Shown: one piece after another, positions 1,666 to 60,392 of the stretch
Layout of the letters: the number at the start of each line of letters is the position of its first letter
How positions within the stretch are numbered: the stretch's first letter is position 1
Virus record (IMG/VR): IMGVR_UViG_3300050159_000048
DNA: 64,000 nt
From: a virus
Lineage: Duplodnaviria; Caudoviricetes
Direction: 5' to 3' (one strand)
Notes under the pieces: generated by a model
What the model was told of the DNA's origin: nothing
The model's input: the letters and a program-made list of their open reading frames with translations, nothing else
The model's database searches: none
Translations under genes and position numbers: made by a program

Positions 1666-4641
1666 TTATCCAAATACGAAGTGTGCACCCATGCCGTACT
1701 CATCCGGCTTATCGGCGATGTAGTCATCAATTTCCTGCAGACAAGCTTCAATTTCTTGCTGAGCAGCTTGACGCAATTCACCTGCGTTGAGTGTAATTGA
1801 GCCACCCGCTCCAGGGAGTGTAGAGAACTTGCCGCGCGTTTCTGCAAGCATCAAACGGCACATAGCAGCCGCATAGCGACGAATCCACGGATTGGCGTAA
1901 CGATCCGACATAATGTCTTGCTCCGTCCGCTCAATCGTTGCTTCAATTGCAACCATCTGCTCAGCCATGCTGAAGCGGTGGTGCAGGAACAATTCACGTG
2001 TTTGCTCATTCCATGTGTAGGTTACGCGTCCAGCAAATAGAATTTCCATCAACTTGGTGTATTCGCCCATCAAGTGGTAGCTCAATAGGTCAAAAGTGCC
2101 CATGTTGTACATATGTTGCATCACAATCTGGCCGTAAACGCCGGCGCCGTGTGCTGACGACAAGAATGAAGACGTTAAGCGGTACACGCCCAGCACATCA
2201 ACAATCTTGTTCATGTCTGATATTTTGTTGGTCAGGAAGAACTTCTGCTCATTCGCCTTGATGCTCATGAAGAAAAATCCGCGCTTGTACGCAACGCCGG
2301 AACGCATGCGCAGCTCACGAAGGGCTCGTGAGATTGCGTAATCCATCTGCTCCTTTGTGATTTCAACGTCAACATTTGGATAGCCTAATTCGTACCGAAT
2401 ATCCATGCCAATCTGCTCACGCATTGCCACTGAGCCGTCAGTACCAATGCCCATTTCCATGTACGTTGGTGTACTGGATGCCCCGTCCGTACCTGGAGAC
2501 AAGTCTCCAAGCGTTGGTGGAGTTGTCATTGAGCTGAATAGGTCGCCGTCCTTAATGCGAACCATGGAGGTGCTGCCAACCGTGTTGTCGGTGAACAGAA
2601 GATTGCCGTTGCAATCCAGTTCAACTGTAGCTGGCGGTGTCGCAGCTACCCACGCTGTTCCGTTCCATTGCTTCAGAATATTCGTAGTGGTGTCATACCA
2701 CATCGCGCCCTTGACTGGTGGTTGTGGGGTAGCGTTGTATACTACGGCTTGCCACGCCGCCCCGTTCCATTGCTGAAGGGCGTTGAATGGAGTGTTGTAC
2801 CAGAATGTGCCAATAGGCATCAAAGCTGGGTCTGTTGTAAATGCGACTGGCGTAATTGGAGACCATCCAGATACCGTACGTACGTGCCACACATTGCCGT
2901 TGTACCAAACGGAACCAACTGTTACCGCAGTTCGTGGATCAGTCGGCGAGGTGATTACAGCCTGCTCCGCAAAGCAGTTGTTACCGTAAATGTACAGCTT
3001 GCCTGTATCCGTGTCAATCCAAGCGGAACCATCCGCGAACGTTGGTGCCAATGCGGGATCGTTTGGTTGGTCTACAAAGTTTGTTACAGCAACCCACGAA
3101 TTTTGTAGTTGATCCCACACAAATAGGATGCCGGCTACGGTATTCCACCACGCATCGCACGAACCTCGCACGGTAGGATCATTTGGGAACGTAATAACGT
3201 CGTTCTCATTCCAGGATGTGTTGCTTGCATCGCGGATGTAGAGGTTTTCCGTGATCGGATTGTACCAAATCTTGCCCGGTGCAGGCGTAGACGGCTCAAC
3301 CTCACGAATGGAAACCCCAGAAACAACATTCCATCCAGCATTAGGAATGCCTAACTGCTTCAGGGTATTCGTGGACGAATCAAACCAGAATGCTCCTGGC
3401 TGTAGTTGTGTTGGGTTGACGTCCGATTCCATGAATTCGGCTGCATTCCACATCTCAAGCGCGGAATTCCAACGGTACAACCGGTTCAGTACTGTGTTAT
3501 ACCAAAACGACCCACCAACAGGAGCAACAGCAAGCGAAGGGTCTGTAGCTTGGACTGTGGTGCTAATTGAGCACCACGCGTAACCATTCCATAGATGAAC
3601 TACCGTACCGTCATACCAATACGACTTGTCCGCAGCAGGTGCGGCAGGGTCGAGTGGATTGTTGTATACCGTAACTATTACCCAAGCGTTCGTTTGCCAT
3701 ACTTGCAGCACGTTTGTGGTCGGATTAAACCAATACGTGCCGTCGGCAACAATATTTGGTTGGGATATGCCGACCAAACACGCAATCTCAGTGTACGATG
3801 TGCCATTCCACTGGAACAGTTTTGATTGTTGGGAGTTCCAGTAATAATGATTTGTGCCAGGCGATGTAGGACCTTGTGGAGCATTACCGATCAACGCTAG
3901 CTGTTTGTTGATTTCTGCAACCAGCGATTGGTAATCTTGAGCATTTGCGCTTGCGACATTAATGGTATACGTTGGCGCAACGAGATTACATTCGCCAACG
4001 TAGAGAGGACGAAGTGGCTTGGGATCTACTCCAAGCTGAATCGTGAAATTGTATATCGCTGGCTGTGGCTGTGCAGGAGGCAGAGGTGACGTTAGTAGCG
4101 GTAGTCCTGTGGAATCTGTAGGCTGCACGCCCGTGGGAATTGTCGTGGGCTTTAGGAATGCGATTTGAGTACCGCGTGTACCGTCCGTGCCGCGGTTAAC
4201 AAACTCAGTTGAATAAGCGTGAACGCCCTCCACAAAGTACCGGTGTTGGCAGTCAGCGGGGTATCCAGCCACAAAGTACGCTGTATTTGGCAGCAACCCA
4301 GTAATGTCCAGCATAGTGGTGACGCGGTCACCATAGAATGCGCCAACAACATAAGCATCACCGATTTTATCACCTGCGAACAGGTTGGAGTCTCCAGTGG
4401 GGTCGGAGCTGTATACCGTGCCGTTCTTTGGGGACGTTGAGGCGGACGCAGGAGTAGTGTTCAGCGTGAGAACAATACCACAATATGCTTGAGTTTCAGC
4501 ATCGCAGCCCGCAGCAGGGGCTGGAATGTTCCAACTAATACGTCCAGTATTTGGACCCGTTCGGTCAAACTTGATTGTAACATTTAACGCCTCTGAACGC
4601 AAGATTCCTGGCGCGGATAGTTGGATGTCGTAAGTGCTCAT
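1666..4641 (-). CDS. Neck protein, T4 gp13-like C-terminus with long N-terminal Trp-rich repeat extension
   Basis: 991 aa. C-terminal ELGYPNVDVEITKEQMDYAISRAL...RYAAAMCRLMLAETRGKF...GSITLNA is gp13-like. Confidence 0.75.
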   Translation of the reverse strand: MSTYDIQLSAPGILRSEALNVTIKFDRTGPNTGRISWNIPAPAAGCDAETQAYCGIVLTLNTTPASASTSPKNGTVYSSDPTGDSNLFAGDKIGDAYVVGAFYGDRVTTMLDITGLLPNTAYFVAGYPADCQHRYFVEGVHAYSTEFVNRGTDGTRGTQIAFLKPTTIPTGVQPTDSTGLPLLTSPLPPAQPQPAIYNFTIQLGVDPKPLRPLYVGECNLVAPTYTINVASANAQDYQSLVAEINKQLALIGNAPQGPTSPGTNHYYWNSQQSKLFQWNGTSYTEIACLVGISQPNIVADGTYWFNPTTNVLQVWQTNAWVIVTVYNNPLDPAAPAADKSYWYDGTVVHLWNGYAWCSISTTVQATDPSLAVAPVGGSFWYNTVLNRLYRWNSALEMWNAAEFMESDVNPTQLQPGAFWFDSSTNTLKQLGIPNAGWNVVSGVSIREVEPSTPAPGKIWYNPITENLYIRDASNTSWNENDVITFPNDPTVRGSCDAWWNTVAGILFVWDQLQNSWVAVTNFVDQPNDPALAPTFADGSAWIDTDTGKLYIYGNNCFAEQAVITSPTDPRTAVTVGSVWYNGNVWHVRTVSGWSPITPVAFTTDPALMPIGTFWYNTPFNALQQWNGAAWQAVVYNATPQPPVKGAMWYDTTTNILKQWNGTAWVAATPPATVELDCNGNLLFTDNTVGSTSMVRIKDGDLFSSMTTPPTLGDLSPGTDGASSTPTYMEMGIGTDGSVAMREQIGMDIRYELGYPNVDVEITKEQMDYAISRALRELRMRSGVAYKRGFFFMSIKANEQKFFLTNKISDMNKIVDVLGVYRLTSSFLSSAHGAGVYGQIVMQHMYNMGTFDLLSYHLMGEYTKLMEILFAGRVTYTWNEQTRELFLHHRFSMAEQMVAIEATIERTEQDIMSDRYANPWIRRYAAAMCRLMLAETRGKFSTLPGAGGSITLNAGELRQAAQQEIEACLQEIDDYIADKPDEYGMGAHFVFG

Positions 4642-14155: not shown

Positions 14156-14944
14156 ATGTCCAACACCAATCCACTACTAGCCAAAATCCGCATCCCCGGT
14201 GCTACATTCCGTCTGCCATCCCAAGGTCTATTCTACGAGGACGGAGAACTTGCCGAAGGCGTGACGAAGGGTGAAGTTGAGGTGTATCCGATGACCGCTG
14301 TGGATGAAATTGTGCTGGCGACACCAGACAAGCTGCTGTCTGGCCGTGCAATCATGGAGATTTTCGCTCGGTGCATTCCACAAGTGATCAAGCCTGAGAA
14401 GCTGTTGACGCGTGATGTGGACTTTCTGATGGTGTGTTTGCGCTCTGTGTCGTTTGGCGATGCGATGGAAGTCACATATACCCACGATTGCGCTAACGCA
14501 AAGACCCACACATTTAGCGTCGACATTCAACAAATGATCCGTGAAACCAAGGTAGTTGACCCAACGTCAATTAACCAAGAATACACGTGTACGGTACCAA
14601 ATGGTCAGATTGTTACCCTGAAGCCACTGACGTACGACAATGTGATTGAGTTGTATCAAACAACTGCTCTAATGAAAGAGGACGAGCTCAGCATTAATGA
14701 GGCGGAGCAGCTGGTGTTGGACACGCTGTCCAACGTGATTCGACGCGTCGATGACGTGACGGATAAGCAGCAAATCCGTGAGTGGGTTAAGTCCATCCCG
14801 CTTGGGTGGAAGCGCAAGATTGAAGGTGCGGCACAAATGGTCAGTCAGTGGGGTGTGGATTTCACATCACGCCAAAAGTGTCCTGATTGCGGTGAGGAGG
14901 CCCACGTCCAGGTATCTGCAAATCCAGTAAGTTTTTTTTCATGA
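14156..14944 (+). CDS. T4 gp26-like baseplate hub / tail assembly chaperone
   Basis: LPSQGLFY, EVEVYPMTAVDE, DVDFLMVCLRSVSFG, CPDCG; ends SFFS. Confidence 0.75.
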   Translation: MSNTNPLLAKIRIPGATFRLPSQGLFYEDGELAEGVTKGEVEVYPMTAVDEIVLATPDKLLSGRAIMEIFARCIPQVIKPEKLLTRDVDFLMVCLRSVSFGDAMEVTYTHDCANAKTHTFSVDIQQMIRETKVVDPTSINQEYTCTVPNGQIVTLKPLTYDNVIELYQTTALMKEDELSINEAEQLVLDTLSNVIRRVDDVTDKQQIREWVKSIPLGWKRKIEGAAQMVSQWGVDFTSRQKCPDCGEEAHVQVSANPVSFFS

Positions 14945-15168
14945 CCCTCCGATCTGGAACGATTGAGGAGAAGCAGCAAATGTTCTCCTCAATGGTCAAT
15001 GACCGGAGGCGTATTATCAAATCGATCATTCAACTGGTGTATTTCATGCGCGGAGCGGTTCAATACGAAACCATGATGTCCATGTCGTCATTTGAGCGAA
15101 GTATGGTAAGTGAGTTCGTGGAGGATCGGCTCGAGGTGGAATCGAAGAAGATGTATCCGCAATACTAA
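14941..15168 (+). CDS. T4 gp51-like small hub assembly protein (possible frameshift extension of the upstream ORF)
   Basis: 75 aa, ATGA overlap, -1 frame relative to the upstream ORF, no clear SD. Confidence 0.6.
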   Translation: MTLRSGTIEEKQQMFSSMVNDRRRIIKSIIQLVYFMRGAVQYETMMSMSSFERSMVSEFVEDRLEVESKKMYPQY

Positions 15169-15496
15169 GCCAGCTCCACGCAGGCATCATAGAGAGACCG
15201 GCTTGGCAGCCGGAGAGATTGTTGAGTTCGGTACCCTTCACTCAACAATCTCTAGCGGTGAAGTAACGCGGTTAAAGGGAATTATCAATCCCTGCCCCGC
15301 GTTTTCGTAGCTGATTGGAAGTACCTCACGGTTCACAGAAGTGAACAATTGTATGAAAAGTGGCCATAACTCCCAAGGTGGTCAACTTTGGTGGGCTCTA
15401 TACCACAGGCTCGTTAGTGCGGCTCCACGCACTCTGTTCCTACACCGGTGGGAGAAGGGTATCACCACCTGACGTTTCTAGTTATACTGTATTGTT
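15169..15496 (+). ncRNA. Candidate structured non-coding RNA
   Basis: Non-coding gap with at least 7 stems, including a perfect 14-bp stem, and a loop-loop complement. G-U pairs favour the plus strand. Confidence 0.5.
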
Positions 15497-15979
15497 TCAG
15501 TCCGGCATGCGCGCAATCCAATACGCGTCGGTCAAATCCGTGAGACCGGTAGTCTTCTTAAAGCCTGCGTCTAAAAACTTCTGTCGAACGTCGTCTGAGA
15601 GTGCTTCTATCATTGCCTTTTTATCAGCCTTGCCACTTCCTGTGGCCTTCTTTTTCACCGAAGTAGGTGCGTATTCCTTGAATACGATAGTGGGGTGCTC
15701 GTAAGCAACAAGATTGACGATCGTAAACAACAATCCAGCCAAGTCTCGAGTTGCATCCCCTCTGATTCCGAAAGCCAATCCTTCTGCTTTAAGCATCGTT
15801 GGATTATGTTTCTTGATCAGTTCACAGATTTTCTTTGCGGTTGACAACGCACGGGCGTATGTAGTGTCCGTTTTTTCGGTTGTAAACCGTCCGAATTCTT
15901 CCATCTGCTGTGATTCAGTGTTCCACAATACGTATCCACAGCTAGTATACGATTGGTCAATTCCCAGTACAAGTGCCAT
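15497..15979 (-). CDS. ruvC: RuvC-like Holliday junction resolvase
   Basis: LGIDQS, KAEG, PTSVKKKATGSGKADK, DLTDAY acidic active-site pattern. Confidence 0.9.
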   Translation of the reverse strand: MALVLGIDQSYTSCGYVLWNTESQQMEEFGRFTTEKTDTTYARALSTAKKICELIKKHNPTMLKAEGLAFGIRGDATRDLAGLLFTIVNLVAYEHPTIVFKEYAPTSVKKKATGSGKADKKAMIEALSDDVRQKFLDAGFKKTTGLTDLTDAYWIARMPD

Positions 15980-40545: not shown

Positions 40546-40551
40546 TAAATA
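40544..40551 (+). promoter_or_regulatory. Late promoter (GATAAATA)
   Basis: Overlaps the stop of the upstream gene. Confidence 0.6.
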
Positions 40552-40573
40552 TACCAACCTCTGAGGACCAATC

Positions 40574-40798
40574 ATGACAGACTATCGCACAACGGACATC
40601 GTATTAGCCGCTTATTTGAAACTATCCGGCTGTCAAATGACCGGAATTGAAAAGCAAGGACAAAAGGGAACTTTCGTGTTCACAGAAGTAGAGGAGCGCC
40701 TAATCAATGCGTATGATTTGGGCAATGCCCGTGTCGAACCAGTAGCTTTTAACAATGCAATCAAGCAACTGACAACGTCAGTACGCCGTATTGTGTAA
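40574..40798 (+). CDS. Small hypothetical protein (resembles DUF5659-type, from memory)
   Basis: 74 aa, YRTTDIVLAAYL. Confidence 0.5.
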   Translation: MTDYRTTDIVLAAYLKLSGCQMTGIEKQGQKGTFVFTEVEERLINAYDLGNARVEPVAFNNAIKQLTTSVRRIV

Positions 40799-40801
40799 AT
40801 C

Positions 40802-40809
40802 CGTAAATA
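40802..40809 (+). promoter_or_regulatory. Late promoter (CGTAAATA)
   Basis: Upstream of ORF 40827, which has an AGGAG RBS. Confidence 0.6.
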
Positions 40810-40826
40810 CATAAAAGGAGCTACAC

Positions 40827-58421: not shown

Positions 58422-60230
58422 ATGTCTCAAGACACATATTTGGGCATTAACATTGACCTATCACGAGACGCGCTTCTGGACGAAATCGGCATCCAGCGCT
58501 TGAAGGACTCGTACCTGATGGAAGATGAAACATCTCCCCAGCACCGATACGCGTACGTATCCAAGGCTTTCGGTAGCAATCCGGAACATGCACAGCGACT
58601 CTATGAATACGCCAGCAAGCATTGGATGGGTTATTCTACTCCCATCCTGTCGTTTGGTCGTAATGCTTCTGGCTTGCCGATCTCGTGCTTCCTGGTCAAC
58701 GTTCACGACTCCAAGGAGGGTCTAGTTGAAGCCCTATCCGAAACCAACTGGCTGTCGATGCTAGGCGGTGGTGTGGGCGTTTACTTCGGTATTCGTGGCA
58801 CAGACGAAAAGTCGGTTGGTGTCATCCCCCACATGGGTGTGTATGACCGCTCTTGCTTGGCTTATAAGCAGGGTACAACACGTCGCGGTAGCTACGCGAT
58901 GTATCTCGACATCAGTCACCCCGACATTCTCGAATTCCTTGATATGCGCAAGGAAACTGGTGACCAGAACCGTCGAGGTTTGAACCTTCACCACGGTGTA
59001 AACATTCCTAACAGCTTCATGGAAATCATTGAGCGTTGCATGCGCGATGCCAATGCCGATGACTCGTGGGAGCTGCGCGACCCTGCTTCAGGTAAGGTTC
59101 ACGAAGTTGTTTCAGCGAAGGATCTGTGGGTTAAGTTACTCGAACTACGGGCCGGCCAAGGTCGTGGTGAGCCATACATCCACTTCGTCGACAATGTTAA
59201 CAACGCTGTCAAACCATACTTGAAGGACAAAGGTTACAAGGTTGTCCAATCAAATCTGTGCTCGGAAATCGAGCTGATGACTGACAAGGACACCACAGCT
59301 GTGTGCTGCCTGTCATCAATCAATCTGGAACATTGGGACGAATACTGCGACAATTACCAATTCTTCCGCGATATTGCAGAAATGTTGGACAACGTGTTGC
59401 AATACTTTATCGACAACGCCCCTCCGTCGATTGCTCGAGCAGTCAAGTCAGCTCGCGAAGAACGCAGCATTGGTATTGGTGTGATGGGTTTCCATTCATA
59501 TCTGCAGAAGAACATAATCGCGTATGACGGCGTGATGGCAAAGGCTGCAAATAACCGCATCTTCACCCGGTTCCAAGCTCAACTGGATCGCGCCAATGCT
59601 GATCTCGGCGCTGAACGCGGTTCGCCTAAGTGGCTTGAAGGCACAGGTCTGCGGTTTGCGCACATGAGCGCGATCGCCCCAACGGCCAGCAATGCTCTGA
59701 TCTGCGGTAATGTGTCGCCTTCAACCGAAGCATGGCGCGCTAATGCATTCCGCCAAGACACATTGTCTGGTACGTTCATTCAGAAGAATAAGCATTTGGA
59801 CGAACTACTAAAGAAGTTGGATGCTGATGGGGCGTGTGATTACCAAGAAGCTTGGCTGAAGATTGTTCAAGCCGAAGGTTCTGTTCAGGGACTGGAGTGT
59901 TTGTCGGATATTGAGAAGGATGTCTTCAAAACGGCTTCAGAAATTGATCAGCTGTGGGCAGTTGAGTTGACGACTGATCGTCAACCCCGCATTGACCAGG
60001 GCCAGTCGTTCAACATCTACATTCGTCCAGATATCAGCATCGCTAAACTGCACGCCATTCACTTCTCCTACTGGAAGAAGGGTGGCAAGGCCATGTACTA
60101 CGTGCGCACAGAAAAGCTGGCTAACACAGACACAGTCGGCAAGAGGGTTGAGCGAGTCCGCATTGAAGAGGAAATCGACCAGTTGCGACAAATTGCTGAA
60201 GGCGTTGATTGCATCGCGTGCGAAGGCTAA
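58422..60230 (+). CDS. nrdA: Class Ia ribonucleotide reductase alpha subunit (no ATP cone)
   Basis: ISCF, SNLCSE, AVCCL, APTAS, MYYVR, C-terminal CIAC. Confidence 0.95.
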   Translation: MSQDTYLGINIDLSRDALLDEIGIQRLKDSYLMEDETSPQHRYAYVSKAFGSNPEHAQRLYEYASKHWMGYSTPILSFGRNASGLPISCFLVNVHDSKEGLVEALSETNWLSMLGGGVGVYFGIRGTDEKSVGVIPHMGVYDRSCLAYKQGTTRRGSYAMYLDISHPDILEFLDMRKETGDQNRRGLNLHHGVNIPNSFMEIIERCMRDANADDSWELRDPASGKVHEVVSAKDLWVKLLELRAGQGRGEPYIHFVDNVNNAVKPYLKDKGYKVVQSNLCSEIELMTDKDTTAVCCLSSINLEHWDEYCDNYQFFRDIAEMLDNVLQYFIDNAPPSIARAVKSAREERSIGIGVMGFHSYLQKNIIAYDGVMAKAANNRIFTRFQAQLDRANADLGAERGSPKWLEGTGLRFAHMSAIAPTASNALICGNVSPSTEAWRANAFRQDTLSGTFIQKNKHLDELLKKLDADGACDYQEAWLKIVQAEGSVQGLECLSDIEKDVFKTASEIDQLWAVELTTDRQPRIDQGQSFNIYIRPDISIAKLHAIHFSYWKKGGKAMYYVRTEKLANTDTVGKRVERVRIEEEIDQLRQIAEGVDCIACEG

Positions 60231-60238
60231 CATGAAAG

Positions 60239-60346
60239 GTCCCAGGGGAACTCAAGGCGTATGTTTCGAACCATCGAAAAGGGCTCCGTGAGTTCCCTGG
60301 GACGATTTGGTCATCTTCAAGTGTGAGTGATGCAAGAAGTGGACCA
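60239..60346 (+). other. Structured intergenic element between nrdA and nrdB
   Basis: 15-bp stem with one bulge enclosing a 6-bp hairpin, followed by a second stem-loop. Confidence 0.55.
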
Positions 60347-60392
60347 CCCGAAAGACCCGGAAATCAAAACAAGATAGAGAACTGGACCTATA

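Follow-up and report, generated by a model that had tools for sequence, protein, structure and literature searches.

The window that we analyzed, a stretch of 64,000 nucleotides (nt) from the IMG/VR record IMGVR_UViG_3300050159_000048 of a tailed phage (Caudoviricetes), has a large gap between a gp51-like baseplate gene region and ruvC, and this locus raises the question of what the gap holds. On a crude map of open reading frames (ORFs) of at least 75 amino acids (aa), the gap at positions 15169-15496 is, with 328 nt, the largest ORF-free stretch of the window, as an initial annotation made from the sequence had said; the runner-up, at 40546-40826, measures 281 nt. The gap is a convergent junction that runs from the stop of a 75-aa ORF to the stop of ruvC, the last gene of a row of sbcD-like, sbcC-like and ruvC genes. 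The initial annotation proposed a folded functional RNA here, possibly the 3' part of a late gp26/gp51 transcript on the plus strand. We find that the gap contains a member of a new, previously uncatalogued structured RNA family (~330-380 nt) in a clade of large T4-like phages; that the element is a real, conserved structured family is a conclusion in which we have high confidence.

Both strands of the gap fold unusually well, with a minimum free energy (MFE) of -115.4 kcal/mol on the plus strand and -115.0 kcal/mol on the minus strand, a z-score of -3.45 on both, and 0 of 100 dinucleotide shuffles folding as well as the gap itself. The eight stems listed in the initial annotation could all be located, with arms that start at 15198 and 15208 (CCGGCT/AGCCGG), 15214 and 15240 (a perfect 14-base-pair (bp) stem), 15265 and 15297 (AACGCGG/CCGCGTT), 15331 and 15341 (GTTCAC/GTGAAC), 15373 and 15385 (CCAAGGT/ACTTTGG), 15416 and 15428 (AGTGCG/CGCACT), and 15447 and 15465 (GGTGG/CCACC); the eighth, GTGG/CCAC, is hairpin H7 of Table 1. 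The element also proved to lie outside Rfam, as had been supposed: on both strands, Rfam 15 gave 0 matches for the whole window at gathering scores, for 15000-15700 at E <= 10, and for seven homolog-bearing loci. No transfer RNA (tRNA) genes were found in the window. A blastn search of GenBank phages returned nothing similar, and 18-mer scans of metagenome and genome contigs with one sequence variant returned chance matches only. The text of a catalogue of >10,000 candidate viral RNAs (PMC10690425), which may or may not list the motif, names no ruvC, baseplate or Nudix context.

Relatives were collected from the contigs of RuvC homologs, by two informative IMG/VR pattern scans, and with a covariance model of the 3' domain (R1), and the combination of nhmmer and the covariance model gave 21 distinct copies. 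The clade of T4-like phages that carries the family comes from soil, leaf litter and fresh water. A scan with the tail pattern yielded 51 matches, among which only L189 and L207 were real beyond the known copies, the others being A+T-rich coding sequence. Fourteen copies occupy the gap between the gp51-like gene with its small ORF and ruvC (the window, L155, L162, L163, L167, L170, L174, L176, L005, L231, L232, L233, L235 and L241), in phages with RuvC identities of 46-73%. Seven copies are found away from ruvC: four (L003, L169, L189 and L207) lie 110-160 nt upstream of a cytidylyltransferase-like plus NUDIX gene of the nicotinamide mononucleotide (NMN) adenylyltransferase/Nudix type (the nadM context), one (L175) has another context, and one (L012, of which L013 is a near-identical copy from another sample) is carried by G001, a 35-kb phage rated 95% complete. 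In more distant RuvC relatives (L004, L007-L011), no copy was found within 3 kb.

Among the nadM-type copies, L003 belongs to the same genome as the window copy. It is a second, diverged and inverted copy at positions 59987-60354 of the 183-kb IMG/VR record that contains the window (G000, only ~52% complete), and thus lies outside the window; we refer to it as copy B. The window copy and this paralog share long identical blocks and differ in their stems by paired changes (CCGGCU/AGCCGG versus CCGCCU/AGGCGG, and GUGCG/CGCAC versus GACUG/CAGUC). The arrangement recurs in G005, a complete 350-kb genome with terminal repeats that has exactly two copies, one at each of the two conserved places, inverted and 77 kb apart; the two copies of G000 are inverted in the same way and 76.5 kb apart. 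In the tree, neither the paralogs A/B nor O/O2 cluster together, in other words each of these genomes has two old copies without homogenization. The copy of G001 is sister to the window copy with 100/99 support, and the element is the sole similarity between G000 and G001 in a whole-phage tblastx comparison, at the DNA or the translated level. As judged from the sequences, the element alone has passed into this unrelated small phage.

The strongest support for a family fold comes from compensatory changes, by which at least 10 helices are kept (labels as in Table 1). For the 3' domain (domain III), we used a model-fitted alignment of 15 copies; such fitting leans towards structure, and the pairs of this domain are also visible in a plain MAFFT alignment. 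Standard pairs make up 90.6% of the cells in domain III versus 69.5% in shuffles, both sides have changed in 74 cells versus 22.8, and the covariation score is 0.518 versus 0.141, with 0 of 500 shuffles reaching this score or the observed share of paired cells; the comparison of syntenic gaps is therefore positive for covariation. When the partner columns were slid by 1-3, the score dropped to ~0.05. All pairs of H8 (5/5, on both sides) and of H9 (6/6) covary, and the P_c pair takes three forms (G-C 8 times, C-G 5 times, A-U twice) with zero exceptions and holds in 19/19 copies. For the 5' core domain, the plain MAFFT alignment has 92% of cells paired versus 77% in shuffles (0/500), and the outer pair of P_a is split between G-C (9 copies) and A-U (4), again with zero exceptions. 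Considering that the copies are related, the shuffle tests overstate independence; yet several helices show 3-4 pair types across groups that differ otherwise.

The larger alignment also refines the structure that was first read from the window. Conservation does not extend to 2 of the 8 listed stems: AACGCGG/CCGCGTT occurs in this copy only, and CCAAGGT/ACTTTGG is absent from the relatives, which instead have the two covarying helices P_b and P_c in another register. The ruvC end first looked like a sharp homology edge at CAG and is in fact a hairpin, T1, whose outer pair is A-U, G-C, C-G or U-A in 14 of the 15 copies that have it and whose inner pair is swapped in L235. Since this covarying hairpin overlaps the ruvC stop codon, the end of the element moves from 15496 to 15501. 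Across the copies, three domains follow one another in a conserved order. In addition, the sequences support a contact between the H9 loop (GGG, 15457-15459) and the P_c loop (CCC, 15372-15374): in L207, GGG becomes GGA and CCC becomes UCC jointly, which is the single double change behind this proposed loop-loop contact. The 8-bp complementarity between the loops of H2 and H9 (TACCCTTC at 15232-15239 with GAAGGGTA at 15454-15461) is real in the window copy, but it is lost in most relatives and was rejected as part of the family fold. Likewise rejected was a closing helix, GGCAUCA/UGAYGUU, which RNAalifold placed on three sequences and which fails with more sequences. A pairing between leader and linker (UAGARA/UUUCUA) is possible.

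In the loop of H2 there is a UUCGNNNCUCA-like motif, a second occurrence of GUACCUCAC from the core block. This motif, GUACC(C)U(U)CAC at 15232-15239, has its counterpart in GUACCUCACG at 15322-15330, and L163, L167 and L155 show the duplication too, which may serve as a pair of binding sites or give the H9 loop a choice of pairing partners.

Table 1. The element and its neighbors in the window (plus-strand coordinates; RNA letters as read on the plus strand unless noted).
Feature	Position	Strand	Remarks
Whole element, 333 nt	15169-15501	minus (best guess)	From the stop of the 75-aa ORF to two bases into ruvC; 21-copy family
Conserved flank block CCAGCUCCAYGCCGGMAUCAUAGARA (plus)	15169-15197		In ruvC- and nadM-type copies; contains a small variable hairpin (from alignments)
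H1, short G+C-rich hairpin CCGGCU/AGCCGG	15198-15213		Compensatory CCGCCU/AGGCGG in the paralog, CGCC/GGCG in L012
H2, long hairpin, 14 bp in the window	15214-15253		Stem sequence differs in every copy at the same place
H3 region, variable	15254-15296		Inner hairpin AGGGA/TCCCT with AUCAA-like loop; outer AACGCGG/CCGCGTT stem in the window copy only
Core block 1 CCCCGCGUUNNCGYAGCUGAUUGGAAGUACCUCRCG with small helix P_a (G15299-C15311, C15300-G15310)	15297-15330		P_a covaries
H5 hairpin GUUCAC/GUGAAC	15331-15346		Relatives: ACCUG/CAGGU, GCCUG/CAGGC, UCCUG/CAGGA, ACAUG/CAUGU
P_b (AAAGU/ACUUU) around P_c (C15364-G15378, C15365-G15377), invariant loop AUAACUCCCAA	15357-15389		P_c covaries
H7 hairpin GUGG/CCAC	15391-15406		Covaries: UGGCU/AGCCA, UGGG/CCCA, CAGGA/UCCUG
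P_d (GG/CC plus one variable pair) around H8 (AGUGCG/CGCACU, 15416-15433)	15408-15441		H8 paired in 100% of cells
H9 hairpin, bulged A, conserved loop AGAAGGGUAU	15447-15469		6/6 pairs changed on both sides
Conserved linker GUUUCUAGUUAU	15470-15485		Minus strand reads AUAACUAGAAAC, containing ATAACTA
T1 terminal hairpin NCUG-(U/A)UUGUUU-CAGN'	15486-15501		ACTG 15486-15489 / CAGT 15498-15501; overlaps ruvC stop codon 15497-15499
gp51-like gene (T4_baseplate)	14156-14944	plus	Precedes the 75-aa ORF
75-aa ORF	14941-15168	plus	After the gp51-like gene; plus-strand upstream neighbor of the element; kept beside it in relatives
ruvC, 160 aa	15497-15979	minus	PF02075, E = 5e-10; homologs align over residues 1-160; minus-strand upstream neighbor of the element

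As to the strand on which the element functions, we consider the minus strand of the window probable. The gene immediately upstream in the minus sense has that same orientation in every context, and its stop lies 0-40 nt from T1; where the context is nadM, L175 or G001, both flanking genes run in the minus sense. The minus sense of copy B also shares its strand with all 52 tRNA genes of G000. The variable hairpin region is stabler on the minus strand in 17 of 18 copies, by a mean of 5.4 kcal/mol, and its dinucleotide-shuffle z-score is lower on that strand in 15 of the 18. On the minus strand, moreover, the unpaired positions and the T1 loop are A-rich, and in L167 a terminator-like H1 is followed by a U-rich tail.

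The alternative is that the plus strand acts, forming at the ruvC locus the 3' untranslated part of the late baseplate (gp26/gp51) transcript and elsewhere a separately promoted antisense RNA ending at H9/T1, which we find doubtful. The plus sense is co-oriented in the ruvC context with the small ORF, which stops 0-25 nt before the element, and the nadM contexts have a TATATA box upstream on the plus strand. However, a plus-strand RNA would be antisense to both flanking genes wherever the element has the nadM, L175 or G001 context, and its 5' hairpin region is the one that folds worse in 17 of the 18 copies. Furthermore, L163, L167, L174, L175, L005 and L241 have a plus-strand U-run after H2, so that a late plus-strand transcript would stop before it reached the conserved core; this was read from the sequences, as the terminator scan, with its loop limit of 8 nt, is blind to H2. 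The initial annotation had called the plus strand, and hence the late transcript, on the ground that G-U pairs work only there, but both strands fold equally well, and because the G-U-bearing stem CCAAGGT/ACTTTGG is not conserved, that call is left unsupported.

Several observations nevertheless weigh against the minus strand. The MFE of the core is equal on both strands, and RNAalifold has a slight preference, which is for plus in domain III and for minus in domain II. Watson-Crick pairs account for 321 of the 362 cells of domain III, against 7 cells with G-U and 13 with A-C when read on plus, a count that does not decide the strand and in which some A-C cells reflect misalignment (a register slip of H7). 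T1 has a G-U between Watson-Crick pairs on plus in L235 and L162, where it reaches 6 bp, and in L174 T1 with a U-rich tail was flagged as terminator-like on plus. The sequence of the element was in no RNA run that was searched. Finally, such a near absence of wobble pairs is unusual for an RNA made from one strand, and it keeps DNA-level and both-strand readings alive.

Taken as a whole, the reading that we prefer is a compound one, namely a new family of autonomous structured RNAs made from the minus strand, which we put forward tentatively and with confidence slightly short of even. The RNA would be either the extended 3' end of the transcript of sbcD, sbcC and ruvC or the product of an ATAACTA box within the element that resembles the late promoter, and would start near T1, which has an A-rich loop, or at H9. 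From there both conserved domains would follow, and the 3' end would be formed by the variable G+C-rich hairpins H3-H1, which may stop transcription or block 3' exonucleases. As for the box, ATAAATA occurs 49 times in G000, mostly 15-35 nt before a Shine-Dalgarno sequence and start codon, and by this sequence context is clearly the late promoter core of this phage; ACAAATA (36) and ATCAATA (31) are frequent as well. The ATAACTA of the linker (minus strand) is one base off the late-promoter heptamer ATAAATA, and where the usual linker is missing, ATAAACA or ATAAAAA stands 6-16 nt before H9, which makes an internal late-type promoter within the element possible.

The mature RNA would be a stable, self-folding module that is independent of the neighboring gene, with its invariant unpaired blocks and loops most likely presented to a host factor, unless the RNA self-assembles like other large phage RNAs. 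An autonomous or trans-acting role is a suggestion that we make with some reserve: the domain order, the invariant unpaired blocks, the bulge, the loop-loop contact, the old paralogs and the lone capture by G001 argue for a specific tertiary fold and a neighbor-independent role, and the upstream genes differ between the contexts of the element. As no phage protein is common to the G000 and G001 phage types, the partner would be a host factor, or the RNA would act alone. That the element represents a new class of large self-folding phage RNA that is active in itself, whether as a ribozyme, as an assembly of RNA only or as a decoy of a host factor for defence or RNA processing, strikes us as unlikely. 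If it were true, selection would have been strong enough to keep two old, diverged copies per genome, sited at the outward-reading ends of a ~77-kb early region, and an unrelated phage of the same habitat would have captured the element alone.

Another role would be that of a purely cis-acting, elaborate boundary element that stops transcription, insulates or stabilizes 3' ends where long early/middle units end, shielding the late and tRNA regions. The position of the element, always 0-40 nt past the stop codon of the upstream minus-sense gene, would suit such a role, as would the convergent junction without a simple terminator that the window copy fills, the hairpins with U-rich tails in some copies, and the inverted copies in G000 and G005, which flank a ~77-kb block whose genes read outward into both. 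Simple hairpins would do for this purpose, however, whereas the unpaired invariant blocks, the bulged A, the loop-loop contact and the three-domain order indicate a specific tertiary fold, and an unrelated phage acquired the element alone; we therefore regard a purely cis-acting boundary as rather improbable. The element could also work at the DNA level, as a replication origin, recombination site or site of single-strand initiation that is folded as single-stranded DNA or as a cruciform beside the recombination genes sbcCD-ruvC. The helices are almost purely Watson-Crick, which is why both strands fold equally well, two inverted copies lie ~77 kb apart in each genome, and the neighbors are recombination nucleases. 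Against this, a bulge, long conserved loops and a compensated loop-loop contact are typical of RNA tertiary structure, iterons and an A+T-rich unwinding stretch are absent, and the strand asymmetry in the folding of the variable region would not be expected of duplex DNA, which makes a DNA-level role very unlikely in our view.

Two further explanations seek the key to the element in its genomic setting. Four copies lie 110-160 nt upstream of the NMN-adenylyltransferase/Nudix gene and on its (minus) strand, as would a riboswitch-like leader of that gene, with the ruvC-side copies as duplicates. We give this little credence: no gene follows on the minus strand in the 14 copies at ruvC, the downstream genes in G001 and L175 have no domains related to nicotinamide adenine dinucleotide (NAD), and the NAD+ riboswitches of Rfam (nadA and pnuC motifs) gave 0 matches. 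Between the element and the nadM-Nudix start (L003:1435-1480, and at the same place in L169, L189 and L207), there is also a second conserved hairpin with the invariant loop GGAUAGAC (minus strand), whose stem covaries (UGUGA/UCACA, CGGAA/UUCCG, GAACUGG/CCAGUUC) and which has a conserved TATATA box ~10 nt upstream. From their arrangement, box and hairpin probably serve the nadM-Nudix gene as promoter and 5' leader, suggesting that this gene has a promoter of its own. The other explanation is a relic or cargo of a mobile element, be it a miniature inverted-repeat transposable element, an intron-like insert or a guide-RNA (omega-RNA-like) scaffold, which could account for two diverged copies per genome, the transfer to an unrelated phage and the fairly sharp edge of conservation. 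The sharp end, however, is the hairpin T1; no target duplications or terminal inverted repeats were seen, the flanks are stop codons of complete genes with nothing interrupted, and TnpB-type and reverse-transcriptase genes are absent from the ~52% of the genome that G000 covers. Since the same two sites are occupied across phages of 46-73% RuvC identity, vertical inheritance is indicated instead, and we attach almost no weight to a mobile origin.

Among known systems, the element appears by analogy to be most like, in kind, GOLLD and ROOL, the ornate RNAs of phages and prophages. These are likewise large, multi-helix, pseudoknotted phage RNAs that have no known protein partner and whose function is not known, with one well-conserved and one variable part, and they occur near tRNA islands (PMC12286853); copy B lies ~4 kb from the cluster of 52 tRNA genes, on the same strand. 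The element belongs to neither family, with 0 Rfam matches even at E <= 10. It is also roughly half their size (~330-380 nt versus ~500-800 nt or more), and its positions are fixed by ruvC and nadM-Nudix rather than by tRNAs. If the minus strand is the functional one, the element could instead be compared with small RNAs derived from 3' untranslated regions (CpxQ, SroC type), as the tail of an mRNA (ruvC) that ends in hairpins and could be processed and act in trans; it is several times larger than these, far more structured, and conserved behind different upstream genes, and we identified neither a seed region nor Hfq-type features in it. With intrinsic and bidirectional terminators it shares the convergent junction and, in some copies (H2 in L163 and L167), a long hairpin flanked by U-runs on one side or on both. 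Unlike these, some copies lie between co-directional genes, and the ~200-nt covarying core far exceeds what termination needs. The window copy has no U-tailed hairpin, as the initial annotation had remarked: no terminator-like sites were detected inside 15169-15496, and because a G+C-rich hairpin with an immediate U-run occurs only in some homologs, an intrinsic terminator was rejected.

Other candidates were rejected on their gene context. Group I introns (td, nrdB, nrdD) are structured RNAs of similar size in T4-like genomes and have a fairly sharp conservation edge, but the element sits between the stops of complete convergent genes, interrupts nothing, and gave 0 matches to the Rfam group I models (P3-P9 core). 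The omega-RNAs of TnpB/IscB are likewise structured RNAs of ~200-400 nt directly 3' of a RuvC-fold gene and, on the minus-strand reading, on the same strand. Here, however, the neighbor is a 160-aa Holliday-junction resolvase (PF02075) and not TnpB/IscB, and the 7 copies mentioned above are not next to ruvC; no variable guide segment was seen, and the conserved end is a covarying hairpin that abuts the stop codon. PF07282 was absent from G000 (~52% complete), while control genomes gave matches. A retron-like RNA was discarded as well, on the absence of a reverse transcriptase from that same partial record.

To our knowledge, few large structured phage RNAs have been described, GOLLD and ROOL among them, and not one of these is understood. 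The element adds a well-supported one, with >10 covarying helices and two fixed loci per genome, and its ~200-nt core is a compact and tractable object. Considering the clear evidence that the RNA module alone has moved between unrelated phages, and that it is otherwise kept at two fixed loci, we argue that its function may be useful to any phage of that host. For a group of uncultured T4-like jumbo phages, the annotation of this locus as a non-coding gap is thereby corrected.

The loci that carry the element have some further features. In G001, ~2 kb around the element (L012:4300-6400) has no ORF >75 aa and gave 0 Rfam matches, and a small basic ORF on the minus strand (L012:5110-5283) has a good ribosome-binding site and lies behind a clear terminator. 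In L169, a 187-aa ORF with a weak GmrSD_C/HNH-like match (3503-4066) lies between ruvC and the element and may be an insertion of a free-standing endonuclease. Outside the window, the 52 tRNA genes of G000 lie on one strand at C1:161-56088 and include a CTA-anticodon call (suppressor-like, 'Pyl') and two odd anticodon loops; several of them are preceded by ATAAATA. Unrelated to the element, ARAGORN detected a permuted two-piece transfer-messenger RNA with the tag peptide ANDAFYGEMRLAA at G000:C1:82523-82865 on the plus strand, ~5.2 kb past the 3' end of the window (64000).

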